32,190 nucleotides of DNA. Source: Ktedonobacterales bacterium (lineage in GTDB: Bacteria > Chloroflexota > Ktedonobacteria > Ktedonobacterales > JACDGC01). Positions 9,208 to 30,100 of this stretch are shown piece by piece. The position numbers and the translations under genes are program-made. How positions within the stretch are numbered: position 1 is the stretch's first letter; every line of letters begins with the position of its first letter. Under the pieces are notes generated by a model that did no database searches, had not been told where the DNA came from, and was given only the letters and a program-made list of their open reading frames with translations. The stretch lies in contig JBBQSR010000002.1 of the NCBI GenBank assembly GCA_038234855.1, positions 1 to 32,190 of the forward strand, in the 5' to 3' direction.

Positions 9208-10113
9208 TTATTTTCCAGGGGTGGGCGTCGTGCCGACATTGGTGCCAGGGACGCCCTTGGCATCGTAGGTGATGGTGATCGAACTGATCACATCGCCCTG
9301 CTGGATGGATTTCGCATTGGCGAAGGTGTCGGTGGTGATGCGGCCAAGGTAGTTGTAAGAGAGGGGCAACGATGTGTTGTCGCCCGTGTTGATGAAGAAT
9401 TGGGAACTGGTGGTGCCCGATCCCTTGTTGGCCATCGCGACATCTTGCACACGGTAAGCATCCGTCGTTTTGGGTAGCTCATCGGGGATGACATAGCCCG
9501 CGCCATCGGGGCTGCTGGGGCCATTGCTCAGCCCTTTGGTCAGATCCGCCTTGGGGTCGACGGTGCGCGGGTCGCCTGCCTGAGCCACCATGGGGTTGCT
9601 GACGACGCGATGGAAGGTCAGCCCATCATAGAAGTGGTGCGTCGCCAAAAAGACGAAGCTGTTGGTGGTGAGGGGTGACGATACTTGGTTGAGCTGGATC
9701 ACGACCACACCATGTTTCGTGAAGAGATTCGCCTGATAGTTGCCGAGCGTCTTGTCGTTGATGCACAGTTGCGGCGCGCTGGTGTAGGTGCGCGTGATCT
9801 TCGCGCCATTCGCCGGACCCGAGGATTTTTTCGCCCAGGCACAGGCGTCCACCGGGGCTTTGACGGCGAAAAGGGGCGTCAGATGGTTGGCCGACAGCGT
9901 GTAGAGCAAGCCACCGATGATGGCGAGGGTCAAGAGCGTCGTCGCTAGAGGAAACTCGCTCACAAAGCCATTGAAGCCGCCAGATGTCTGGCGCTTCTGC
10001 GCGGCGCGGCGCACGGCGTCATTGGGCACGCGCTGTACCGGTTCGGTCTGGTGGGCCTGGCGATAGCGTTCGGCCTGACGCGCGGCGGATTTATTGGCGG
10101 TGGTCTTGGGCAT
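9208..10113 (-). CDS. Membrane-anchored cyclophilin-type peptidyl-prolyl cis-trans isomerase
   Basis: Cyclophilin core (FVFLATHHFYDGLTFHRVV....AQAGDP...GYVIPDE......VAMANKG..TTSSQFFI) after a basic N-tail and a TM segment (LATTLLTLAIIGGLLY). ATG at 10113. It occupies only the last 301 codons of the 892-aa track ORF. Confidence 0.85.
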   Translation of the reverse strand: MPKTTANKSAARQAERYRQAHQTEPVQRVPNDAVRRAAQKRQTSGGFNGFVSEFPLATTLLTLAIIGGLLYTLSANHLTPLFAVKAPVDACAWAKKSSGPANGAKITRTYTSAPQLCINDKTLGNYQANLFTKHGVVVIQLNQVSSPLTTNSFVFLATHHFYDGLTFHRVVSNPMVAQAGDPRTVDPKADLTKGLSNGPSSPDGAGYVIPDELPKTTDAYRVQDVAMANKGSGTTSSQFFINTGDNTSLPLSYNYLGRITTDTFANAKSIQQGDVISSITITYDAKGVPGTNVGTTPTPGK

Positions 10114-10278
10114 GGGGGGCTGGTGCTCCTTCGCCGCCGGCCTGTGCGCCTCCGGTGCGCGTCGCGGGCGGGGATGTTTTCGTGATATGCTCAATAAGCG
10201 ATTGGGCTTATCATACGCCTGAGGTCGGGCGGTGGTCAAGCGGATGAGACTTTTCGGCAAGGGGCACGACACCTGGCT

Positions 10279-12333
10279 ATGAATGAACAGATGCAAGCGA
10301 CCCTGGACAATCTGCCACACAAACCCGGCATCTACCTCTATAAAAACGATGAAGGCACGATCATCTATGTCGGCAAGGCGACCTCGCTGCATAGCCGCGT
10401 CCACCAATATTTCGCCGCGGGGGCTGACCTCAGCCCCAAAAATCGCGCGTTGGTCAGCCACATCACCAGCATCGAATTCATCGTAGTGGGCAGCCCGGTC
10501 GAGGCGCTCATCCTCGAAAACGAATATATCAAGCGTCACCAGCCCAAATATAACGTCCGCCTGCGCGACGACAAGAACTATCCCTACATCAAGGTGTCGC
10601 TGACCGAGGACTTTCCGCGCGTCTACCGCGTGCGATCCTTCCGGCAAGATGGCAACCGCTATTTCGGCCCCTATACTAACGCGGGCGCGGTGGACGCGAC
10701 GCTGGATCTGCTGAACAAGATCTTTCCCTTCCGCACCTGTCGCTATGATGGCTGGTCCTGGGCACCGCCCAGGGAGGGCAAGCTGACCCGCGCCCAAGCC
10801 GCCGCAAACAATGCCGCCCCAGCCAAGGGCAAGCGTGGCGCGCACCCCGCCGCGAGCGAGTGGCGACAAAAGCTGCTGCCGCGCCCCTGCATGCAATACA
10901 CCATCCATCGCTGCGTCGCGCCGTGCGTGGCGAAGGTGACGCGCGAGGACTACGACGGCATCATTCGCCAAGTGGTGCTCTTTTTGGAGGGCAAGCACGA
11001 GGCGGTGCAGGACGACCTGCGCGCCCAGATGGAGACCGCCGCCGAGGCGATGGAGTTCGAGCGCGCCGCCGTGCTGCGCGACCGCATCGACGCCGTCGGC
11101 CAACTGCTGGCGAAGCAAAAGATCATCAACACCACCGCCAGTGGCGATCAAGACGTGGTGGCGCTCGCCAGCCTCGACGATGAGACGTGCGCGCAGATCT
11201 TCTTCTTTCGCGGCGGCAAGCTGGCGGGGCGCGAATCGTTCATCCTGAAGGGCACGCGCGACACGACGGCGGGCGAGATCATGACCTCGTTCTTGCAACA
11301 GTTCTATGACCAGGCACCCGCGATACCGGGCGAGATCATCTTGCAAACGGAGCCAGAGGAGGGCGAGGATCTGACGGCGTGGCTGCGGCAAAAGCGCGGC
11401 GCGGCGCTGGCGCTGACGGTGCCACAGCGGGGCGACAAGGTGCGATTGGTCGAGATGGTCGCGCAAAATGCCACCGAGGCGCTGGAAATGGAGCGCATCC
11501 GTTGGCTGTCGGATTCGCAGAAGACGATGCTGGCGCTGCAAGAGGTGCAAGAGGCGCTGCACCTGCCCGCGCCGCCGCGCCGCATCGAGTGCTACGACAT
11601 CTCGAACATCCAGGGGACGGCGAACGTGGGGTCGATGATCGTCTTCGAGAATGGCAAGCCCAAGCCAGCCGACTATCGCCGCTTTCGCATCAAGACCGTC
11701 GACGGCGCGGATGACTATGCCAGCCACCGCGAGATGCTGCGCCGCCGCTTCAAGCGCATGGAGGCGGCCCCCGACGACGCGCCGATGGAAGAGGTCATCG
11801 AGGCCGCGATGGGTGGCGAGGCGGCCCCGGTCGATTCCTTCCAGGCGATGCCCGACCTCGTCATCATCGACGGTGGGCGTGGCCACCTGAACGCCGACCT
11901 AGCCGTGCTGGCTGAACTGGGCATCCGTGTGCAGATGGTCGGTGTGGCGAAGGAAAACCACGGGGCCATCGGCGAATACGAAGACATCTATCTGCCCGAC
12001 CAGCCCGAGCCGCTGGTGCTGCCACGCGGCTCGCAGGGGCTGTACCTCATCCAGCGCATCCGTGATGAGGCGCACCGATTCGCCATCACTTATCATCGCC
12101 AGGTCCGCAGCACCAAGGCCTTCACCTCGCTGCTGGATGAAGTGCCGGGCATCGGTCCCAAGCGCAAGAAGGCGCTGATCCTGCACTTCGGGTCGGTGCG
12201 CGCCATCGCCGCCGCCAGCGTCGACGACCTCGCCGCCGTCGAGGGTATGACGCGCGACGCCGCCGAGAAGGTGAAAGAGTTCATTGGTGCCCGCCCGCCC
12301 GCCGACGCCGCGAGTGGGGAAGCAAGCGTGTAA
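10279..12333 (+). CDS. uvrC: Excinuclease ABC subunit C
   Basis: N-terminal GIY-YIG (PGIYLYKNDEGTIIYVGKATSLHSRVHQYF), UVR domain (FERAAVLRDRIDAV), the UvrC endonuclease region and a C-terminal HhH pair (LDEVPGIGPKRKKALILHFGS). Confidence 0.95.
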   Translation: MNEQMQATLDNLPHKPGIYLYKNDEGTIIYVGKATSLHSRVHQYFAAGADLSPKNRALVSHITSIEFIVVGSPVEALILENEYIKRHQPKYNVRLRDDKNYPYIKVSLTEDFPRVYRVRSFRQDGNRYFGPYTNAGAVDATLDLLNKIFPFRTCRYDGWSWAPPREGKLTRAQAAANNAAPAKGKRGAHPAASEWRQKLLPRPCMQYTIHRCVAPCVAKVTREDYDGIIRQVVLFLEGKHEAVQDDLRAQMETAAEAMEFERAAVLRDRIDAVGQLLAKQKIINTTASGDQDVVALASLDDETCAQIFFFRGGKLAGRESFILKGTRDTTAGEIMTSFLQQFYDQAPAIPGEIILQTEPEEGEDLTAWLRQKRGAALALTVPQRGDKVRLVEMVAQNATEALEMERIRWLSDSQKTMLALQEVQEALHLPAPPRRIECYDISNIQGTANVGSMIVFENGKPKPADYRRFRIKTVDGADDYASHREMLRRRFKRMEAAPDDAPMEEVIEAAMGGEAAPVDSFQAMPDLVIIDGGRGHLNADLAVLAELGIRVQMVGVAKENHGAIGEYEDIYLPDQPEPLVLPRGSQGLYLIQRIRDEAHRFAITYHRQVRSTKAFTSLLDEVPGIGPKRKKALILHFGSVRAIAAASVDDLAAVEGMTRDAAEKVKEFIGARPPADAASGEASV

Positions 12334-18813: not shown

Positions 18814-19887
18814 TCAGGCCTCCACTAGCGCCGTTTCAACCGACAAAATGGGCGGTAAATTTGTGCAGATCTGCTGCCAACTCTCCCCCTCATCATGACT
18901 GCCAAATACTTGGCCCGTGCTAGTGCCCACATAGATGCCCACGGGGTCTAGGGTATCTACCGCCATCCCTTCACGCAGCACGCCTAAGTAGGCATGCTCC
19001 TCTGGTAATCCCCGTGTCAGCGGACCCCATGAATCGCCGCCATCAGTGCTGCGCCACACCACCATTCGCCCTTCTGGGACGTAACGGCCCTTATCGCCGC
19101 CATTGAGGGGGATCACATACAGGGTATTCGGATCGCGCGGGTGAAGTGCGAGCGGGAAGCCGAAATCCGATGGCAGGCCGGCGGTGATCTCTTGCCAATG
19201 CACGCCAGCATCATCGCTGCGATAGACGCCACAGTGATTTTGCTGGTAGAGTTGTGCGCCATCCGCTGTCAGCAGCAGTTTGTGAACGCACTGGCCAAAC
19301 TCTGGATAGCGCTCGGGATGAAATTCGGCGCGCACACCCTGGTTCCGTGTTGCCCACGTCTGGCCGCCATCCGCTGTCGCGAAGGTTCCAACCGCCGAGA
19401 TGCCCACCCACATGCGGTCAGGCTCGGTGGGATGCACGACGATGGAATGCAGACATAGCCCACCATAGCCAGGTTGCCACTGTGCACACGTGGGATGGTT
19501 GCGGAGTCCCTCAACATGGGTCCAGGTCAGCCCCTGATCGGTGCTGGCAAATAGCCCAGCGGGATCGGCACCGGCATAGATCACGTCTCGCGCCGGGGTG
19601 AGATGCCAAATGGTCGAGATTCCCGGCCCCGCCTCGCCATAGGTCAGGCCGATATTCGTATGCGACCACGTCTCCCCTACATTCTCGCTGCGCCAGATGC
19701 CGGGGCCAAACCACGGATTGCCCCCAGCCGCATAGAGAAGATGGGTGGCGTCGTCGTAGACCATGTGATAAATGGGCGACGCCTCGCAGAATGGACCCCG
19801 CAGGTGCCATTCCGTTCGTCCCTCGTTGCCTGTGAGCAGAAACGCGCCTTTCTTCGTCCCCAAGAGCACCAAGACTTGTGCTGTCAT
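18814..19887 (-). CDS. BNR/Asp-box repeat beta-propeller protein (sialidase/xyloglucanase-like fold), cytoplasmic (no signal peptide)
   Basis: Six Asp-box-like motifs (SENVGETW, STDQGLTW, TADGGQTW, SDDAGVHW, STDGGDSW, SHDEGESW). Starts MTAQVLVLLGTKKGAF with no signal sequence. Confidence 0.8.
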   Translation of the reverse strand: MTAQVLVLLGTKKGAFLLTGNEGRTEWHLRGPFCEASPIYHMVYDDATHLLYAAGGNPWFGPGIWRSENVGETWSHTNIGLTYGEAGPGISTIWHLTPARDVIYAGADPAGLFASTDQGLTWTHVEGLRNHPTCAQWQPGYGGLCLHSIVVHPTEPDRMWVGISAVGTFATADGGQTWATRNQGVRAEFHPERYPEFGQCVHKLLLTADGAQLYQQNHCGVYRSDDAGVHWQEITAGLPSDFGFPLALHPRDPNTLYVIPLNGGDKGRYVPEGRMVVWRSTDGGDSWGPLTRGLPEEHAYLGVLREGMAVDTLDPVGIYVGTSTGQVFGSHDEGESWQQICTNLPPILSVETALVEA

Positions 19888-20174: not shown

Positions 20175-21764
20175 CTAGCGTGTGGCGGCGGGCATGGGCA
20201 CCTGGCGGCCTGACGGGTCGGCCTCGTCGCGGCGGGCACCCTCGTGATATTCCGCGTCGGTGTTGACGCGCCAGGGATCGTACTGGGTGCCCAGGGCGAT
20301 GTTGCGCGCCGCCAGCAGGGCCGTCATCATTGAATGGTCCTGGTTGTTGTAGTGGTGCATGCCATTGCGGCCCACCAGATGCAGATTCGGCAGGTGCGCT
20401 TCCAGGTAGTCGCGCACCACCGCGACGTGCTGCTTGTAGGTCGCGTCATAGACGGGGTAGGCCTTAGGCTGGCGCACCACCGTCCCCCCGGTGATGTCTT
20501 GCGGGCGGCACATCCCCAGCTTCACCAATTCTTCGCCGCCGAGCCGCACCAGATCCGCGTCGGCTTGCTCCCACAGGCCGTCGCCCGCGAAGCAGAAATA
20601 TTCCAGCCCCAGGCAGGTCGTCTGCGGGTCGGGCACCATGGCGGGACTCCAATTCTTGAAGTTCTGGATGCGTCCGGCGATGATGCCAGGGTCATGTAGA
20701 TAGATCCAATTATCGGGGAAGACCTCGGCCTGGTTCAGGATGAGCGCGATGGTGAGGAAGTCGCGGTAGCGCAACGACCGCGCGGCCTCGACCACCGCTG
20801 GCGGCAGGGCGGGGTCGCACATCTCGACCAGATTGCGCATCGGCAGGGTCGAGATGAAGTGGTTGCCCCGGATGGTGCGCTCCGCGCCCGTCGTGGCGTC
20901 GCGCGTGACTACCGCCGTCACGCGCCCGCCGCTGTGGCGCACGCGCACGATCTCTTGTCCTAGGTGCACCTGGCCGCCCCGCCCGCGAATCAGATCGCGC
21001 GTGCGGTCCCACATCTGCCCAGGGCCGTAGCGTGGGTAGCGGAATTCGTCGATCAGAGTCTTGATGACCTCGCCATCCTTGCCCTTTTGGCCGGGGAAGA
21101 GCGCGCCCTTGATCGCCTGAGTCAGGTTCAGCCCTTTGATGCGCTGCCCTGCCCAGTCCGCCGAAAGTTCCTTGGTGCTGATGCCCCAGACTTTCTCGGT
21201 GTATGTCTTGAAGAAGATCGAGAAGAGGCGCTCACCGAATTGGTTGCTGACCCAATCTTCGAGATTCTGCGGGTTCGCGACGGGGTGCAGCCGCGCGCCC
21301 GCGTAGCTGGCGAGGCAGCGCACCGTCTCGCCGATGCCCAGGTTGCGCAGCGCGTTCATCGCCTTGAGCGGATAGTCGAAGTATTTGCCGCGATAGAGGA
21401 TGCGCGACAGGCGGGGCCGCTTCAGCAATTCGTCACCGAGGATCTCGGTCCACAGATCCTCGATCTCTTGGCTTTTGGAAAAGAAGCGGTGGCCGCCGAT
21501 GTCGAAGCGATAGCCTTGATATTCCGCCGTGCGGCTGATGCCGCCGACATAGTGGGGGTCGGCTTCGAGCACCGTGACGGGGGTGGCATGGCGCGTCAGT
21601 TCATACGCGGCGGTGAGTCCCGCTGGCCCCGCGCCCAGTACCACGACGGGGGACCGCTCGCCCGAGGGCACCTGGGCGGCGGGGAAGGCGATGTCGGGGG
21701 CGAGTTGGTCGGCTCCCCGACCGGCGATGAGGGCATCCTGCTGGTTGAGCATGGTCTGTTGCAT
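20175..21764 (-). CDS. NAD(P)/FAD-dependent oxidoreductase (amine-oxidase / UDP-galactopyranose-mutase-like superfamily)
   Basis: Rossmann dinucleotide motif VVVLGAGPAGLTAAYEL....VTVLEA....GG, then RFDIGGHRFF and a long conserved C-terminal body. The exact start (21764 or the ATG 12 nt downstream) is uncertain. Confidence 0.85.
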   Translation of the reverse strand: MQQTMLNQQDALIAGRGADQLAPDIAFPAAQVPSGERSPVVVLGAGPAGLTAAYELTRHATPVTVLEADPHYVGGISRTAEYQGYRFDIGGHRFFSKSQEIEDLWTEILGDELLKRPRLSRILYRGKYFDYPLKAMNALRNLGIGETVRCLASYAGARLHPVANPQNLEDWVSNQFGERLFSIFFKTYTEKVWGISTKELSADWAGQRIKGLNLTQAIKGALFPGQKGKDGEVIKTLIDEFRYPRYGPGQMWDRTRDLIRGRGGQVHLGQEIVRVRHSGGRVTAVVTRDATTGAERTIRGNHFISTLPMRNLVEMCDPALPPAVVEAARSLRYRDFLTIALILNQAEVFPDNWIYLHDPGIIAGRIQNFKNWSPAMVPDPQTTCLGLEYFCFAGDGLWEQADADLVRLGGEELVKLGMCRPQDITGGTVVRQPKAYPVYDATYKQHVAVVRDYLEAHLPNLHLVGRNGMHHYNNQDHSMMTALLAARNIALGTQYDPWRVNTDAEYHEGARRDEADPSGRQVPMPAATR

Positions 21765-21951
21765 CCTTTCAACATCCGTACAGTACTAGCATAGGTACGC
21801 AAGCCAAACACCAACATTCGGCAATCGCTGGTTGAGTTTCACTCTCTATGGCACTGGATAGGAGGTTGCAAGATGTGCTAGATTGCGTCCATGTGAGACA
21901 CCGAATGCCCACAGTGCCCGTGTGGCCGTGTTTGTATTTGTGATAATTTTC

Positions 21952-21980
21952 TTGACAATTACAAAATGCCATGTTATACT
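21952..21980 (+). promoter_or_regulatory. Near-consensus sigma70 promoter (TTGACA-17-TATACT) driving the island cassette
   Basis: TTGACA at 21952-21957, a 17-nt spacer, TATACT at 21975-21980, about 30 nt upstream of the ATG at 22013. AT-rich upstream tract. Confidence 0.6.
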
Positions 21981-22012
21981 AGCAATGTAACAGCGTAATC
22001 TTCATAGGGGGA

Positions 22013-22693
22013 ATGGGCAGCATGCCGATGACAAGGGAAGAATTTGTTGCAGTATTAGCGCCAGCACAATTGGGCTTTATCATCGAAAGCATCCAGTTGG
22101 GTCTAGCGGATTATACGAATCCGCTTAACTATAGTGCTACTGCGAAAATTGCTCATACTCCTAGTGTTCGGGCGCAGATCCGCAACGCCCATATTGTGTA
22201 TCGCGCTAAAGAGTTGTTGAATGGACAAGATGGTGTTGGCATTGTTCCCAGAACTAGTGGGCAACGGCTCCTATTTTATGTCGCTGAGAATATCCGTTTA
22301 TCTTTTAAGAAGCTGAATACCAATCTGCGTTCGCAAAACTATCCAACCAAACAGGCAATAGCATTCAATGCACAACAATGGCCCTCAGATCTCGATTATG
22401 CGGCACAGCCTACTAAGCCAGAGCAACTTCCATTATGGTCGCAAGATATCGTGCCACAACTCACGAATCTGATTGGTGGATATGTGTATAATCAAGCTGA
22501 AACAAGCTTTATCGCTTATGTCGTGTGCCCAGATGGTGAACGTAACGTATGGGACTGGCCGTTGACAACGCACGATATCATTGAACTTGCTCATGCTGAG
22601 AATATCGCCGAGACGGAAGCAGTAACAAAAATTCGCAGCCGACCGATCCGCATTCGCCCAGGCGCGTCAAACACGCGAAAGAAGTCAGGGTAA
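22013..22693 (+). CDS. Hypothetical protein (226 aa), no recognisable domain; first gene of the island cassette
   Basis: Single long ORF in a low-GC context, where spurious long ORFs are unlikely. RBS AGGGGG upstream; alternative ATGs at 22022 and 22028. Basic C-terminal tail (RSRPIRIRPGASNTRKKSG). TAA stop abuts the next ATG. Confidence 0.7.
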   Translation: MGSMPMTREEFVAVLAPAQLGFIIESIQLGLADYTNPLNYSATAKIAHTPSVRAQIRNAHIVYRAKELLNGQDGVGIVPRTSGQRLLFYVAENIRLSFKKLNTNLRSQNYPTKQAIAFNAQQWPSDLDYAAQPTKPEQLPLWSQDIVPQLTNLIGGYVYNQAETSFIAYVVCPDGERNVWDWPLTTHDIIELAHAENIAETEAVTKIRSRPIRIRPGASNTRKKSG

Positions 22694-23779
22694 ATGGCAC
22701 AGCGTTACCAGCGTACCCACAATCAAACGATCAACCCCCAAATGATCGTACTTGCACGAGAATCACGGGGCCTCTCGCAAAAAGAGTTGGCTGCAAAGCT
22801 TGGCGTCCCACAAAGCCGTATTTCGATGATCGAGATGCAACTGCGCCCCATTTCTGATGATCTCATTGGCATGATCGCTAAAATTTTAGATTACCCACTC
22901 GCTTTCTTCTGGCAAGTGGGAGCAATTAATGGCATCGGTATCGCCGAGATATTTCATCGTAAGCGCCATGCCGTTCCCAAACGCACGCTTGATACTATCT
23001 ACGCCCGTTGCGAAATTCGCTTCAAACATCTTAATGCGCTTCTCATTTCTGTTGATGTGGAAACGACAGTCAATACAATTGACGTGAACAATTTTCCCCA
23101 GGAGCCAAGAGAAATCGCGCAGATGGTGCGCGCAAGTTTACACATTCCTAGAGGGCCTATCATAGATGTAACCGATGTTCTTGAAAATGCCGGTATTATT
23201 GTCATTGCCTTTGATTTTGAGACGACACGAGTAGATGCTCTCAGTCGGTGGATTCCGCATATGCCTCCGATTATTTTCGTTAATACGCAATGTCCCAAGG
23301 ATCGCCTTCGCTTCTCTTTAGCCCATGAATTAGGACACGTTGTCATGCATACTTCACCCAACCCTTATATGGAACAACAAGCGGATGATTTTGCGGCAGA
23401 GTTTTTGTTGCCTGAAAGAGAGGTGCGCTTAAATCTAGCAGCAGTTGATCTGGCTCAACTTGCGGTTCTCAAGCAGTATTGGAAGGTTTCGATGGCGGCG
23501 CTCTTGAAGCGGGCTGAGGATTTGGAAATCATCACGCCAAATAGGGTGCGTTATTTATGGGCACAAATGGCACGTCTTGGTTATAAAACGCGTGAACCAG
23601 TTGAGTTAGATATCAAGGGGGAAGAACCCAAACTGGTAAAGGAGATCATTGATGCGCATCTGAATGAGCTTGACTATACGATGCATGATCTCTTAGAGAT
23701 TCTGCCCCTACATGAGAACGAGCTAAAGACTTACTATTGGGAAGAGTCACGGCGAAAACATCTGAAACTCGTAAAATAA
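22694..23779 (+). CDS. XRE-family HTH domain fused to an ImmA/IrrE-family (M78, COG2856) zinc metallopeptidase
   Basis: N-terminal HTH (ARESRGLSQKELAAKLGVPQSRISMIEMQLRPIS). HEXXH motif with downstream acidic partner (RFSLAHELGHVVMH.......EQQADDFAAEFLLPE), characteristic of ImmA/IrrE peptidases. Confidence 0.9.
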   Translation: MAQRYQRTHNQTINPQMIVLARESRGLSQKELAAKLGVPQSRISMIEMQLRPISDDLIGMIAKILDYPLAFFWQVGAINGIGIAEIFHRKRHAVPKRTLDTIYARCEIRFKHLNALLISVDVETTVNTIDVNNFPQEPREIAQMVRASLHIPRGPIIDVTDVLENAGIIVIAFDFETTRVDALSRWIPHMPPIIFVNTQCPKDRLRFSLAHELGHVVMHTSPNPYMEQQADDFAAEFLLPEREVRLNLAAVDLAQLAVLKQYWKVSMAALLKRAEDLEIITPNRVRYLWAQMARLGYKTREPVELDIKGEEPKLVKEIIDAHLNELDYTMHDLLEILPLHENELKTYYWEESRRKHLKLVK

Positions 23780-23818
23780 ACCATCACCAAGGATACGATA
23801 AGAGGAGGCAACGGCAAG

Positions 23819-24178
23819 TTGGCGCTGAAAGACGTCCTGGGGCGATTCGTGGCGATTGATGGCGTGCGGGCGCTGATCGTGGCCGGGCGTGATGGCCTGG
23901 TCATCGGCCAGACGGATCTGCCCCTGCCCGACGCGGAGGCGCTGGCGGCCTATGGTGCCCAGGCGCTCGGCGCGGCGGAGGGGCTGGGCAGCGAGACGCG
24001 CCGTACCGCGCTGGTCGGCCTGATCGTGGAATATGGCGACGCGCTGGTCAGCATAGACCCGCTCGGTGAGTTGGCCGTGACGGTAGCGCGGCTCGACACG
24101 GCGGCGGCGCTGGTGCCGCTGCGGCAAAATTTGCGGCAATGGCGCGGCGACCTCTTGGCAGCCCTCGACGCCATGTGA
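23819..24178 (+). CDS. Roadblock/LC7 (MglB-like) domain protein
   Basis: TTG start 10 nt after AGGAGG. The pattern L......GV.A.IVAGRDGLVIG...........ALAAYGA......E.L....L....VEYGDALV...P is typical of Roadblock/LC7 proteins. Confidence 0.7.
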   Translation: MALKDVLGRFVAIDGVRALIVAGRDGLVIGQTDLPLPDAEALAAYGAQALGAAEGLGSETRRTALVGLIVEYGDALVSIDPLGELAVTVARLDTAAALVPLRQNLRQWRGDLLAALDAM

Positions 24179-24191
24179 GATACTGCCCATT

Positions 24192-25262
24192 ATGAATGAA
24201 CCCACGAACCCCAACTCCGGCGCGTATGCCGCGTCGGGCGTCGAGATCGACGCGCTGAACCGCGCCAAACGGCTGATCGGTGAATCCGTCGCCAGCACGC
24301 GCCGCCCCGAGGTGCTCGCCGACATGGGGGCCTTTGGGGGCCTCTTTGCCCTCAGCCCGCTTGGCATGCGCGATCCCGTGCTCGTGACCTCCATCGATGG
24401 CGTCGGCACGAAGCTGAAGGTCGCCTTCGCGCTGAACCGGCATGGCTCGATCGGCGCGGATCTGGTGGCGCACTGCGTCAACGACATTCTCACCACGGGC
24501 GCGCGTCCGTTGATGTTCCTCGACTATCTGGCGCTGGGCGACCTCGCGCCCGAGACCATCGCGCTGATCGTCGCGGGAGTGGCCGAGGGTTGCGCGGCGG
24601 CGGGCTGCGCGCTCATCGGTGGCGAGACGGCGCAGATGCCTGGCTTTTACCCGACGGGCGAATATGATCTGGCGGGCACCATCATCGGCATTGTGGAGCG
24701 CGACGCCATCGTCACCGGCAAGACCGTTGCGGCGGGCGATGTGGTCATCGGCCTGCCCGCCGTGGGGCTGCACACGAATGGCTATGCGCTGGCACGCCAG
24801 GTCTTCGCGGCGGATGACTGGTCCGCCGTCGTCCCTGAACTGGGGATGAGCCTGGGCGACGCGCTGCTGCTGCCGCATTCGTCCTATCTGGCTCCGGTAC
24901 GACGCGTGCTGGATGACCCGGCGCTGGCGGGGGTCGTGACGGGGATGGCGCACATCACGGGCGGCGGCTTGCTCGAAAACATCCCCCGCGTGCTGCCCGA
25001 TGGCCTGGGGGCCGATCTGGATGCGACGCGCTGGGACGTGCTGCCGCTCTTCCGGCTGATACAGCGGCGCGGCGATGTCGCATGGGACGAGATGGCGCGC
25101 GTCTTTAACCTGGGCATCGGCTATACCCTGCTGGTGCGCCCCGCCCAGGCCAACGCCGTGCTGGACGCGCTGAATGACGGTGGCATGCTGGGCCGCACCA
25201 TCGGCACGGTGGTGGCGCGGGCAGGCGAGCCGCGCGTGCGGGTGGAGGGTTTGCCGCGATGA
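24192..25262 (+). CDS. purM: Phosphoribosylformylglycinamidine cyclo-ligase (AIR synthetase)
   Basis: YAASGVEIDA.N, GAFGGLFAL, LVTSIDGVGTKLKVA, DLVAHCVNDILTTGARPLMFLDY and AHITGGG are canonical PurM motifs. Confidence 0.95.
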   Translation: MNEPTNPNSGAYAASGVEIDALNRAKRLIGESVASTRRPEVLADMGAFGGLFALSPLGMRDPVLVTSIDGVGTKLKVAFALNRHGSIGADLVAHCVNDILTTGARPLMFLDYLALGDLAPETIALIVAGVAEGCAAAGCALIGGETAQMPGFYPTGEYDLAGTIIGIVERDAIVTGKTVAAGDVVIGLPAVGLHTNGYALARQVFAADDWSAVVPELGMSLGDALLLPHSSYLAPVRRVLDDPALAGVVTGMAHITGGGLLENIPRVLPDGLGADLDATRWDVLPLFRLIQRRGDVAWDEMARVFNLGIGYTLLVRPAQANAVLDALNDGGMLGRTIGTVVARAGEPRVRVEGLPR

Positions 25263-25897
25263 CCGACGCGCCACGCATCGGCGTCCTGGTGTCGGGACGC
25301 GGCACCAATCTCGCTGCCTTGATCGACGCCATTCGCGTGGGATCGCTCTTCGCGCGCATCGCGTTGGTGATTTCGAGCAAGGCTGATGTGCCCGCGCTCC
25401 GCATCGCCGGGGAGGCGGGCATCGCCACGCAGGTGATCGCGCCGCGCGCCTTCGCCTCGCGCGCCGAGGAGGGCGCGGCCATCGTGACAGCACTGCGGGC
25501 GGTCGGCGCGGAGGTGGTGGTGACGGCGGGCTACGCGCGCATCTTCGACGCGTGTGTGGTCGAGGCGTTTCGTTGGCGCATCATCAACATCCATCCCTCG
25601 CTGCTGCCAGCCTTCGCGGGCAGCATGGCACCGGGGCCACAGGCGGCGGCGCTGGCCTCGGGCGTCAAATTCACCGGCTGCACCACCCATTTCGTCACGG
25701 AGGCCACTGACGCGGGACCGATCATCGACCAGGCCGTCGTGCCGGTGCACGATGACGACACGGTCGAGACGCTGGCGGATCGCATCTTGGCTGCCGAGCA
25801 TCGCTTGCTGCCCGCCAGCGTCGGTGCCGTGCTGGCCGATCAGGTCATCATCGATGGCCCGCGCACGCGCCGAAAGCTCGCCCATGCGCGCGATTGA
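25259..25897 (+). CDS. purN: Phosphoribosylglycinamide formyltransferase
   Basis: RIGVLVSGRGTNLAALIDA, IINIHPSLLPAFAG and GCTTHFVTEATDAGPIIDQ are canonical PurN motifs. ATGA overlap with the purM stop. Confidence 0.95.
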   Translation: MTDAPRIGVLVSGRGTNLAALIDAIRVGSLFARIALVISSKADVPALRIAGEAGIATQVIAPRAFASRAEEGAAIVTALRAVGAEVVVTAGYARIFDACVVEAFRWRIINIHPSLLPAFAGSMAPGPQAAALASGVKFTGCTTHFVTEATDAGPIIDQAVVPVHDDDTVETLADRILAAEHRLLPASVGAVLADQVIIDGPRTRRKLAHARD

Positions 25898-28062: not shown

Positions 28063-28584
28063 ATGACGGCTCAATCTCAGGCCGAGAGCTTTGAGAGTTT
28101 CTTTCGCCGCTATCAAGCCCAAGTTTCGGGGTACCTGTGGCGAATGACCTGCAATGAGCAAATCGTCCTCGATCTGTGCCAAGAAACGTTTTTCCGTGCA
28201 TGGCAGCATTTTGAGCAGATTCGCACCTATCCGCACCCGGCGTCATGGCTATTTCGCGTCGCCACGAACCTTGCCTTGCAAGACATCCGGCGGCGGTCAT
28301 CACCCGTCGGGGCAGCCACGCCCTTTGCTGATGACGAGCGCGACCCGGCGGCCAGCGACCCTGGTCGACGCGTCGCGGAAAGCGAACTGGTGCGCCAAAC
28401 GCTGTTGGCCCTGCCCCCCAAACAGCGCGCCCTGCTGGTATTGCGCGAGGTGTATGACGTGCCCTTCGAAGAATTAGCGGAAATGATGGAGATGAGTGCA
28501 TCGGCGACCCGCATGGCGCTCTCACGCGCACGCGAACAGTTTCGCCAGATCTATCGCCGAAAGGATGGTGGGAAAGATGCATGA
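28063..28584 (+). CDS. ECF-family RNA polymerase sigma factor
   Basis: Region 2 (FFRRYQAQVSGYLWRMT.N.....DLCQETFFRAW..........SWLFRVATNLALQDIRRR) and region 4 (LPPKQRALLVLREVYDVPFEELAEMMEMSASATRMALSRAREQFR). Confidence 0.9.
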   Translation: MTAQSQAESFESFFRRYQAQVSGYLWRMTCNEQIVLDLCQETFFRAWQHFEQIRTYPHPASWLFRVATNLALQDIRRRSSPVGAATPFADDERDPAASDPGRRVAESELVRQTLLALPPKQRALLVLREVYDVPFEELAEMMEMSASATRMALSRAREQFRQIYRRKDGGKDA

Positions 28585-30100
28585 CCTCGTGCGCCATTGC
28601 ACCCAAAACATGTCCGTCGATGCGCTCTCGGGCTGGCGCGATGACACGTTAGGGCCAGAGGTGGCTGAGCGGGTGGCCACCCATTTGCCGACCTGTCGCG
28701 CGTGCCAGGCCTATCTCCACGAATATGAGCAAGATGCGTTACGGTTGCGGCGTTTCACCCCACCGTCGCTGCAAGCGGAAGCGTGGCAGTTGATCGAAAG
28801 GCGAATGCGGCAACCACCGGCACCGCCTCCCCGCTTACGCGTGATCTTCACGCGGTGGAGCGTGCCGTTTGTCGTCCTGACGCTGATCGTGCTCTTTGCC
28901 CTGCTGCTCAATAATGGCGGGCGGCGACCGAGCCCGGTGACGCAGGTTCCCACCACAACCGTCGCTCATGGCACGCCCAATGGTGCGCCAACGGGTACCC
29001 CAAATGCCCGGCAAGGGTGGACCGACATCCCCGCGCTGAGTTTTGGCAAGTCGGTCGCCTTTGCGGCGAGCGATCCCCAAACGGGGTATGTCTGCGGCAA
29101 TAATCCGGCGGCGGGTGCGACCGCGTCGTTGCAGATCGCGGCGACCCATGATGGCGGACGAACCTGGGGACAGCCGCTCACGAGCGGCATTGCCAACCAG
29201 GCTGCCTGTCGGCTAGCGGTGAATCCCAGCGATCCTCAAGAGGTAGCGATGAATGTCTCGGCATGTTGGGAAGGATGCAGCGGCAGCGGTCAATATGGCC
29301 CAGATCTGTATCGCTCTTTCGATGGCGGGCGGACCTGGCAACCATCGACCTTCCCCACGAGCGGTGGCAATGTGGGGATCAGTGCGCCAGTCTGGGCGAA
29401 AGGCGCGATGTTCGTGTATACGACGACAACGGGCGCGAACTCCGTCGTGCCCTTTCAGCGCGGGGCACACTCGGTCGCGGTCAGCCTCAACAACGGCCCG
29501 CTGGGCTGGGTCAACGATGCCACGATGTTCGCGGGCATGAGCGATCTCTCGGTCGAGATCACGAATGCGTTTACCTACAATGGCGCGTATTTCGTGCAGG
29601 TGAATGGCGCGACCTTCAAGACCACGGATTATGGTGCCACCTGGTCGCGGCTGGCCTCCGTCGACACGATCGTCATCACCGCTGTCGCCGCCGATGGCAG
29701 CACGCTCCTGGGCCAGCATACCGCCGACCACCAATACATCCGTTCGGTCGATGGCGGGGTCAGCTGGACGCCATTCGCTGTGCCACCAAATACCACGCGC
29801 ATCGTCACGACACCGAATGGCACGTACTATGTCTGGCAGGACGATGCGTCCGCGACGACGCCAAAGACCATTTATCGGCAGACCCCCGGCGGTACCACCT
29901 GGACGCCCGTCGCGGTGATCGATCCGTTGCAACGCCCGACCCTGACCTGGGCGGTCGTGTCGTGGGATGCCCATGGTCAACCACAGCACCTGTGGGCGAC
30001 GGAGGCGACGGAGGCGACGAGTGCCGTCTCGGTCGCGTCGTCGCATATTCCCGCGAGTGCGAGTGGCTATCTGCCGGGCATCGCTCAGCACGCGCCCTGA
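28577..30100 (+). CDS. Membrane-spanning anti-sigma factor (zf-HC2) with an extracytoplasmic BNR/Asp-box beta-propeller domain
   Basis: 8-nt overlap with the sigma gene stop (ATGCATGA). HLPTCRAC zinc-finger motif, one TM segment (VPFVVLTLIVLFALLL), then four Asp-boxes (THDGGRTW, SFDGGRTW, TTDYGATW, SVDGGVSW). Alternative ATG at 28565. Confidence 0.75.
   Translation: MHDLVRHCTQNMSVDALSGWRDDTLGPEVAERVATHLPTCRACQAYLHEYEQDALRLRRFTPPSLQAEAWQLIERRMRQPPAPPPRLRVIFTRWSVPFVVLTLIVLFALLLNNGGRRPSPVTQVPTTTVAHGTPNGAPTGTPNARQGWTDIPALSFGKSVAFAASDPQTGYVCGNNPAAGATASLQIAATHDGGRTWGQPLTSGIANQAACRLAVNPSDPQEVAMNVSACWEGCSGSGQYGPDLYRSFDGGRTWQPSTFPTSGGNVGISAPVWAKGAMFVYTTTTGANSVVPFQRGAHSVAVSLNNGPLGWVNDATMFAGMSDLSVEITNAFTYNGAYFVQVNGATFKTTDYGATWSRLASVDTIVITAVAADGSTLLGQHTADHQYIRSVDGGVSWTPFAVPPNTTRIVTTPNGTYYVWQDDASATTPKTIYRQTPGGTTWTPVAVIDPLQRPTLTWAVVSWDAHGQPQHLWATEATEATSAVSVASSHIPASASGYLPGIAQHAP

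Follow-up and report, generated by a model that had tools for sequence, protein, structure and literature searches.

In the stretch analysed here, the first 32,190 nucleotides of contig JBBQSR010000002.1 of a Ktedonobacterales bacterium (assembly GCA_038234855.1; hereafter the window), two adjacent genes form a small cassette that we read as an autoregulated toxin-antitoxin (TA) or abortive-infection system of the RosmerTA type, equipped with a new family of soluble and basic toxins; to this reading we assign a probability of about 0.65. Gene 2, the downstream one, encodes a putative antitoxin and autorepressor of the RmrA type, in which an XRE-type helix-turn-helix (HTH) and an M78 zinc peptidase are joined in one polypeptide, and gene 1 encodes its constant partner, the candidate toxin. 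Only the family of the partner is new; the logic of the system has already been published for RosmerTA and for the pneumococcal pair RipA/RipB (Spr1630/Spr1629, hereafter RipAB). The original prediction, which was made from the letters of this DNA, had proposed an undescribed system, and in this respect it has to be given up, because gene 2 matches the RmrA models of PADLOC along its whole length and such systems are in the literature.

Gene 2 is a fusion protein of the RmrA type

Gene 2 (22694..23779, + strand) encodes 361 residues. An XRE-type HTH occupies residues 21-72 (22754..22909, + strand; Pfam HTH_3, E = 1.5e-12) and a Peptidase_M78 domain (ImmA/IrrE, COG2856) occupies residues 164-274 (23183..23515, + strand; PF06114, E = 6e-19). 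The HELGH motif of the peptidase lies at 23324-23338 and the third ligand, E236, is found within AAEFLLPE; an alignment of 10 homologs shows no variation at H211, E212, H215 and E236, and the HExxH...E site is intact.

All of the 14 RmrA models of PADLOC are matched by gene 2, the best of them with E = 7.9e-59 over residues 7-344 of 361, and phrog_2439, whose members are annotated as transcriptional regulators, is matched with E = 1e-79. Weaker matches were found in PADLOC to capP (E = 4e-16) and capH (E = 8e-6), the RmrA models scoring about 140 bits above capP, and among PDB entries to CapP (7t5t) and IrrE (3dte). The NCBIfam model NF052239, which describes the spr1629-family repressor/antitoxin, is matched over residues 22-344 with 121.3 bits (E = 5e-35), below its equivalog cutoff of 335 bits; judged by these scores, gene 2 is related to the spr1629 (RipB) family and is not an equivalog or ortholog of it.

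A full-length fusion of XRE and M78-like parts has also been solved: PDB 9vzy, a 393-aa protein named HTH cro/C1-type domain-containing protein, is found by a profile of the RmrA clade with E = 2e-11 (residues 2-314). This structure could be a template for work on the mechanism of RmrA.

The two genes behave as one unit

The open reading frame (ORF) of gene 1 extends over 22013..22693 (+ strand) and encodes 226 aa from the ATG at 22013; its TAA stop (22691-22693) directly abuts the ATG of gene 2 (TAA|ATG), and the two ORFs are co-oriented. Translation of gene 1 probably starts at the ATG at 22022, giving a protein of 223 aa, because the public gene call has this length, because all homologs align from an M-x-M-T-R motif and because the GGGGGA Shine-Dalgarno sequence ends at 22012, leaving a spacing of 9 nt to the ATG at 22022 and of 0 nt to that at 22013. 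Neither ORF is a chance one, since a profile of gene 1 retrieves 576 protein clusters and gene 2 matches RmrA, phrog_2439 and similar models with E = 1e-59 to 1e-80.

A member of the gene 1 family was found immediately upstream of an RmrA gene of the same orientation in 11/11 sequence-distinct loci, down to about 20% identity. These comprise the window itself, close relatives (five loci, 40-51% identity to gene 1), distant relatives (four loci, 22-34% identity to gene 1) and one locus in the Acinetobacter phage vB_AbaM_ABMM1, whose protein is about 18% identical to the family consensus; in each of them the RmrA gene comes next. Moreover, the phage pair is kept in 29/29 prophage contigs of IMG/VR, which represent at least 18 flanking contexts and only about three sequence variants. 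In nine loci the two genes share 1-35 nt, in the phage they share 4 nt and in the window they abut, an arrangement in which translational coupling is probable. The pairwise identities of the gene 1 and gene 2 proteins of nine loci are strongly correlated (r = 0.92), gene 1 being the faster evolving of the two. Identity to gene 2 is 49-58% among the partner RmrAs and only 31% for an RmrA-like protein that has an unrelated upstream gene and is encoded in the same viral contig as one of the homologous pairs. Taken together, these comparisons of sequences indicate that the pair evolves as a unit amid a wider swapping of RmrA partners.

The viral contig in question (L001, 69.6 kb, from IMG/VR) carries a homolog of gene 1 and, about 2.3 kb away, a second Rosmer-like pair (L001:12049-13849, - strand), in which an unrelated 223-aa protein without match in PADLOC or PHROGs overlaps an RmrA gene (PADLOC E = 2e-71). 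This second pair was considered as a homolog of the module and was rejected, its upstream protein being unrelated to gene 1, as in partner swapping. Between the two pairs lie genes for a Fic-domain protein and for a PF28206 (Vpar_1526) protein, and by its gene content the region, to which L001:11401-11910 also belongs, looks like a prophage hotspot of TA and defence modules with another unrecognised RmrT candidate.

A distant homolog in another genome (L012, GCA_010102415.1) has imuB/dnaE2-type error-prone polymerase genes on one side, and on the other an IS1595 transposase gene, a PLD+SNF2 helicase gene and a DUF1156 gene. Among these neighbours (L012:2617-7250 and L012:11789-16642) the helicase and DUF1156 genes look like those of a defence island system associated with restriction-modification (DISARM).

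Much of what had been read from the window at the outset was borne out. The two ORFs lie where they had been placed, with the junction as described; the peptidase motifs quoted for gene 2 are real, and the C-tail of gene 1 is indeed basic (its last 31 residues have an isoelectric point of 11.5). The expectation of a tight two-gene module held up in every locus read, an XRE-M78 gene adjoining each gene 1 homolog, and the view of gene 2 as a regulator or antitoxin-like component, with the upstream orphan as its obligate partner, gains support from linkage and co-divergence.

A strong promoter with a putative operator

The cassette is preceded by a sigma-70-type promoter (21952..21980, + strand) composed of TTGACA, a spacer of 17 nt and TATACT, with TG before the -10 element and 11 of 12 consensus positions kept. 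It is the sole strong site in the region, it ends 33 nt upstream of the ORF at 22013 and its position is kept in homologous loci. Operator-like elements (21927..21965, + strand) consist of TGTGA-type direct repeats and of the palindrome TTGACAATTACAA, which overlaps the -35 element; an inverted repeat has its arms at 21931-21941 and 21955-21965.

Seven loci with gene 1 proteins of only 34-50% identity keep this noncoding layout, in which a TTGCA-N3-TGCAA-like palindrome over the -35 element comes after repeats of the TGTGA type. The most divergent clade (L012, L016 and L018) is without TTGCA-N3-TGCAA; in its place these loci share another conserved element upstream, made up of GAGGAATGrTTyyrGGAwTAAAAC and then TTGACA...GTACACT (L012:7870-7960, L016:~790-880, L018:~2300-2390). 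The conserved motif is a putative operator that the cognate HTH would bind, and its replacement in the divergent clade suggests that operator and HTH have co-evolved.

The family of gene 1

As a single sequence, gene 1 drew no match from Pfam, PADLOC or NCBIfam, and its best score in PHROGs is E = 0.41. A word-indexed search returned five relatives with 40-51% identity. From 1.84 billion representative proteins, the profile retrieved 576 clusters (defined at 50% identity) with E <= 1e-3, of which 129 reach E <= 1e-10; almost all of them are about 200 aa long. Ten members were checked for their names: all are called "hypothetical protein", and 9/10 come solely from metagenome or read-archive assemblies. 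Among 120 diverse members, profile comparison gave no consistent match in PADLOC, Pfam, NCBIfam or the sequences of PDB, the exceptions in PADLOC-DB v2 being four scattered single-member matches to Cas and Avs models; 51 of the 120 match phrog_15813, a group without annotated function (best E = 5e-12). Other searches brought no relatives: there was no hit to gene 1 by tblastn in 50,697 phages or 72,556 plasmids, the family alignment A1 retrieved no relative from 185,579 GTDB species genomes, and nothing came up with the queries P0067 and P0143 among phages or with P0104 in IMG/VR.

A cultured representative is provided by the phage vB_AbaM_ABMM1, in which gp30 belongs to phrog_15813 (E = 1e-139) and, when aligned by hhalign to the profile of the gene 1 family, reaches a probability of 98.6% (E = 6e-16). 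It overlaps by 4 nt gp31, which is an RmrA (PADLOC E = 1e-56) and, among phage proteins, the one that gene 2 matches best. Complete RosmerTA systems, which may or may not be the gp30/gp31 module, have been reported in prophages of A. baumannii. The toxin TD3 of Acinetobacter guerrae from NetFlax was also considered and set aside as irrelevant; it pairs with an AAA ATPase and not with RmrA.

No membrane-like segment is present in the gene 1 protein, which is soluble and basic. AlphaFold2 models of it are reasonably confident, with a predicted template modelling score of 0.75 with 6 sequences and 0.78 with 12. In the models, residues 8-71 form an N-terminal helical bundle, followed by three beta-strands (77-101), a helix (113-119), a disordered and indel-rich loop (about 122-150), three further strands (151-184), a helix (186-194) and a disordered basic tail, the strands composing a six-stranded sheet. 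Foldseek searches with these models, twice against PDB and also against BFVD, gave no match at E <= 1e-3; nuclease folds recur among the top non-significant matches, namely EcoRV, subunits of the tRNA-splicing endonuclease (TSEN), the Cas4-family protein ACE1, the SPARDA nuclease and Eco15I, with E = 0.05-0.6 and template modelling scores of 0.17-0.26. Gene 1 had been placed outside the described families, and this stands: no functional family was matched in Pfam, PADLOC, NCBIfam, PDB or BFVD.

Conservation across the 120 sequences is concentrated in few positions: G156 (100%), Y157 (98%), K99, T112 and Q121 (97% each, K99 being in the third strand), P173 and W180 (94%), C172 (88%) and K100 (85%), followed by H48 (77%) and by H60 and R53 (72%). 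An identity as a PD-(D/E)xK or EndA-like nuclease was rejected, given template modelling scores of about 0.2 and no conserved acidic residue, and is kept as a lead. Our guess is that gene 1 has a basic, possibly metal-independent site for binding or cleaving nucleic acids. On a more ambitious proposal, which we hold to be speculative and rather unlikely, gene 1 founds an unrecognised toxin superfamily (at least 576 clusters, phrog_15813 included), whose fold may be new and which may act without metal on nucleic acids or on a machine that handles them. On this proposal the near-invariant K99, T112, Q121 and Y157 would make up the active or binding site, backed by H48 and H60, a set that bears a loose resemblance to the Tyr-His-Lys site of the tRNA-splicing endonucleases seen repeatedly among the weak fold matches. 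The conserved basic tail might be bound or clipped by the M78 domain of RmrA; if true, this would explain the purpose of the protease domain in Rosmer antitoxins.

The cassette is a horizontally acquired insertion

The promoter and the two genes lie on a low-GC cassette of 1,986 bp (21818..23803, + strand) that is inserted relative to a related genome. This relative (L056), a metagenome-assembled genome of Ktedonobacterales (Chloroflexota), is the closest GTDB genome for the flanking oxidoreductase; it has the order oxidoreductase-Roadblock-purM-purN, with proteins 83-92% identical to those of the window flanks, and contains neither gene of the module, thus representing an empty site. Nucleotide homology to it ends at 21817 and restarts at 23804, so that 1,986 bp replace about 224 bp of intergenic DNA. 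The pair has 46% GC and a GC content at third codon positions (GC3) of 0.43-0.46, in a chromosome of about 63% GC with flanks of about 62-68% and a gene GC3 of about 0.85. In most of the other loci, too, the GC of the module is below that of its flanks. From the composition of the cassette, the empty site in the relative and the same bias elsewhere, we conclude that the cassette is horizontally acquired, mobile and selfish-like; for the genome of the window the pair is a recently acquired selfish or defensive cassette. No tRNA, integrase or transposase gene, terminal repeat or Rfam structured RNA was found at the cassette.

On the left the cassette is flanked by a gene resembling FAD amine oxidases (20175-21764, - strand) and on the right by Roadblock/LC7, purM and purN; farther out are uvrC, transporters and oxidoreductases. 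The stop of gene 2 is 39 nt from the TTG start of the Roadblock gene (intergenic region 23780-23818; downstream region 23819-25897), and no terminator-like site was found between them. In L056 the native intergenic DNA upstream of Roadblock/LC7-purM-purN holds a TATACT box resembling a -10 element, which in the window has been replaced by the cassette. The purine-biosynthesis genes may now be read through from the cassette promoter and so be under the control of RmrA.

Elsewhere in the window, an ORF of 892 aa (9208-11886, - strand) lies antisense to uvrC (10279-12333, + strand); its GC content is higher at first than at third codon positions, the pattern of a shadow ORF in a GC-rich genome, and uvrC is the real gene, with GIY-YIG, UvrC RNase H and HhH domains. 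Two proteins with BNR/Asp-box, Sortilin-Vps10-like repeats are encoded on either side of the cassette region (18814-19887, - strand; 28496-30100, + strand) and are unrelated to the cassette.

Proposed mechanism and alternative explanations

In the mechanism that we propose, the strong sigma-70 promoter would drive a bicistronic mRNA from which the toxic effector (gene 1) is translated first and RmrA (gene 2) by translational coupling. The N-terminal XRE-HTH of RmrA would bind the palindrome over the -35 element and repress the operon, and RmrA would also prevent the gene 1 protein from acting, whether by binding it directly or by means of its own M78 zinc-peptidase domain. A trigger, for example phage infection or DNA and replication stress, would inactivate or titrate RmrA or lead it to cleave itself; the gene 1 protein, freed or over-produced, would then arrest the cell, as in abortive infection or addiction. 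For a soluble alpha/beta protein whose surface is conserved and basic and whose C-terminal tail is basic too, the best guess of a target is nucleic acid or a machine bound to nucleic acid. The sequences themselves show the layout of the genes, the domains, the intact peptidase site, the strict linkage, the co-divergence, the promoter with its conserved upstream motif and the arrival as a cassette. Toxicity, neutralisation, operator binding and the trigger are inferred from the precedents of Rosmer, RipAB and ImmA, and the defence role and the target are likewise inferred.

Several points weigh against this interpretation. The toxicity of the gene 1 family, its neutralisation and its role in defence are extrapolated from Rosmer systems whose toxins are unrelated to it. 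Apart from the four scattered Cas and Avs matches named above, neither gene 1 nor its 120 relatives nor gp30 match any model of PADLOC-DB v2, and hence none for RmrT; a rule-based tool would therefore not call the locus Rosmer. No acidic residue is conserved across the 120 sequences, which makes a canonical metal-dependent nuclease site unlikely in gene 1. The neighbourhood in the window is a housekeeping one (uvrC, purM, purN, transporters) and not a defence island, and a Rosmer-family pair may serve a role other than defence, as RipAB acts in competence.

This last consideration leads to the alternative of a selfish addiction or stress module without anti-phage role, kept because its loss kills the cell, or acting on a stress response in the way that RipAB modulates competence. 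A solitary cassette in a housekeeping region without neighbouring defence genes, with the low GC and the empty site typical of mobile TA modules, would suit it, and RipAB is a precedent for a non-defence phenotype; yet several Rosmer systems have measured anti-phage activity, and members of the family occur in prophage accessory regions and beside other defence-type genes, as in the viral contig with the second RmrA pair and the Fic gene or next to the DISARM-like genes of L012. We consider it rather improbable, and it differs from a RosmerTA-type defence cassette in biological role alone and not in molecular logic; the choice between the two is a separate question. Somewhat less probable still is a purely transcriptional switch, like a fused CapH/CapP or ImmR/ImmA, in which a repressor that cleaves itself in response to stress or single-stranded DNA sets the level of gene 1 without post-translational neutralisation. 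The matches of gene 2 to capP and capH in PADLOC and to CapP and IrrE in PDB, the conserved palindrome over the -35 element and the analogy with LexA drawn by Makarova et al. all speak for it. However, gene 2 lies downstream in the shared transcript, so that de-repression raises the repressor too; in RipAB the XRE-ImmA protein counteracts its toxin even when this is expressed from a foreign promoter; and a co-divergence of r = 0.92 suggests co-evolution between proteins, not between DNA and protein alone.

Reversed polarity, with the M78 peptidase as the toxic or effector activity and gene 1 as its sensor, adaptor or inhibitor, would agree with early comparative genomics, where COG2856 was listed as predicted toxin and Xre as antitoxin, and with a gene 1 that shows no recognisable catalytic motif. 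We find it very unlikely, because fused HTH-M78 proteins behave as antitoxins in the experiments on delta-rmrA, RipB and NetFlax D25, and RmrA-like proteins pair with many unrelated partners, as hub antitoxins do. An even poorer candidate, to which we give hardly any credit, is a relic of prophage immunity in which the XRE-M78 protein is the leftover repressor of a phage or an integrative and conjugative element (ICE) and gene 1 a functionally uncoupled passenger: the annotation of phrog_2439 members as transcriptional regulators and the presence of relatives in prophages near repressor and antirepressor genes speak for it, but the cassette holds exactly two intact genes and a promoter, with a clean empty site in the relative and no other phage genes in the window, and linkage and overlap are kept down to about 20% identity while the proteins co-diverge.

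The gene 1 family also has practical significance. It is unrecognised by PADLOC-DB v2, Pfam, NCBIfam and fold searches of PDB and BFVD, and homology-based defence finders that require a catalogued RmrT would miss such loci. Antitoxins of the RmrA type are hubs that pair with many toxins, most of them without known activity, and the gene 1 family offers a tractable handle on this group, being large, soluble, open to modelling and strictly linked to RmrA, with a cultured representative, gp30/gp31, that many prophages of A. baumannii carry. Through this family a new toxin activity could be discovered and the role of the M78 protease domain in Rosmer antitoxins be addressed.

Comparison with known systems

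The architecture itself would not surprise a specialist, and its parts recur in several described systems. With CapH/CapP the cassette shares an HTH repressor and an M78 protease module, as reflected in the matches of gene 2 to capP, capH and 7t5t; CapH and CapP, however, are encoded by two genes and regulate a separate multi-gene defence operon, whereas no operon for a cyclic oligonucleotide-based antiphage signalling system (CBASS) or for another effector adjoins the cassette. ImmR/ImmA of ICEBs1 and DdrO/IrrE of Deinococcus likewise combine an M78/COG2856 protease with an XRE-family HTH partner in a stress-responsive switch. In those systems protease and repressor are separate proteins and control a mobile element or a regulon, whereas in gene 2 they are fused and the sole apparent target is the co-transcribed partner. 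A second XRE gene, as a two-protein switch has, is absent from the cassette, and the window around it contains no ICE, other phage or CBASS-like genes and no regulon context.

The phage protein gp30 and the phrog_15813 group are remote homologs of gene 1 that share its position, overlapping a downstream RmrA gene. They differ in that gp30 has an identity of just about 18% with the family consensus and lacks some of the near-invariant residues (Q121, G156 and C172-P173); gene 1 itself scores E = 0.41 against phrog_15813, and this group is without functional annotation.

RipAB, which has been assigned to the large Rosmer family, shares the XRE + ImmA architecture of its antitoxin RipB and the position of the toxin gene upstream in the operon, and the spr1629-family model is the one matched by gene 2. 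RipB neutralises RipA in trans and is essential solely when RipA is present. The resemblance does not extend to the toxin: neither gene 1 nor its 120 relatives match a consistent NCBIfam model, and therefore a likeness to RipA or a targeting of DnaN is not supported.

The closest correspondence is with RosmerTA. A fused Xre-COG2856 protein beside toxins was noted as early as 2009. In RosmerTA, as described by Millman et al. (2022), an antitoxin with a zinc-peptidase accompanies a toxin of unknown function, and a construct without rmrA (delta-rmrA) could not be transformed. Ernits et al. (2023) found in node D25 of NetFlax that diverse RmrTs pair with RmrA, with the toxin first in 58% of the pairs, validated D25 as an antitoxin and reported that RmrTA of phage Kita defends against phage. 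Our cassette shares with these systems the two-gene operon, the toxin-first order, the occurrence in phages and prophages, a toxin without detectable homology to known families and an antitoxin in which one polypeptide carries an N-terminal XRE-HTH and a C-terminal ImmA/M78 zinc peptidase with intact HExxH and Glu. It departs from them in that gene 1 and its relatives match no toxin model of PADLOC-DB v2 and that gene 1 has no membrane segment, unlike the RmrT(D5) of Kita. By its RmrA the locus is RosmerTA, and the one operational feature of membership that it lacks is a catalogued RmrT; since the Rosmer family is defined by the diversity of its toxins, this lack makes it less likely that the locus would be annotated as Rosmer, not that it works like Rosmer.

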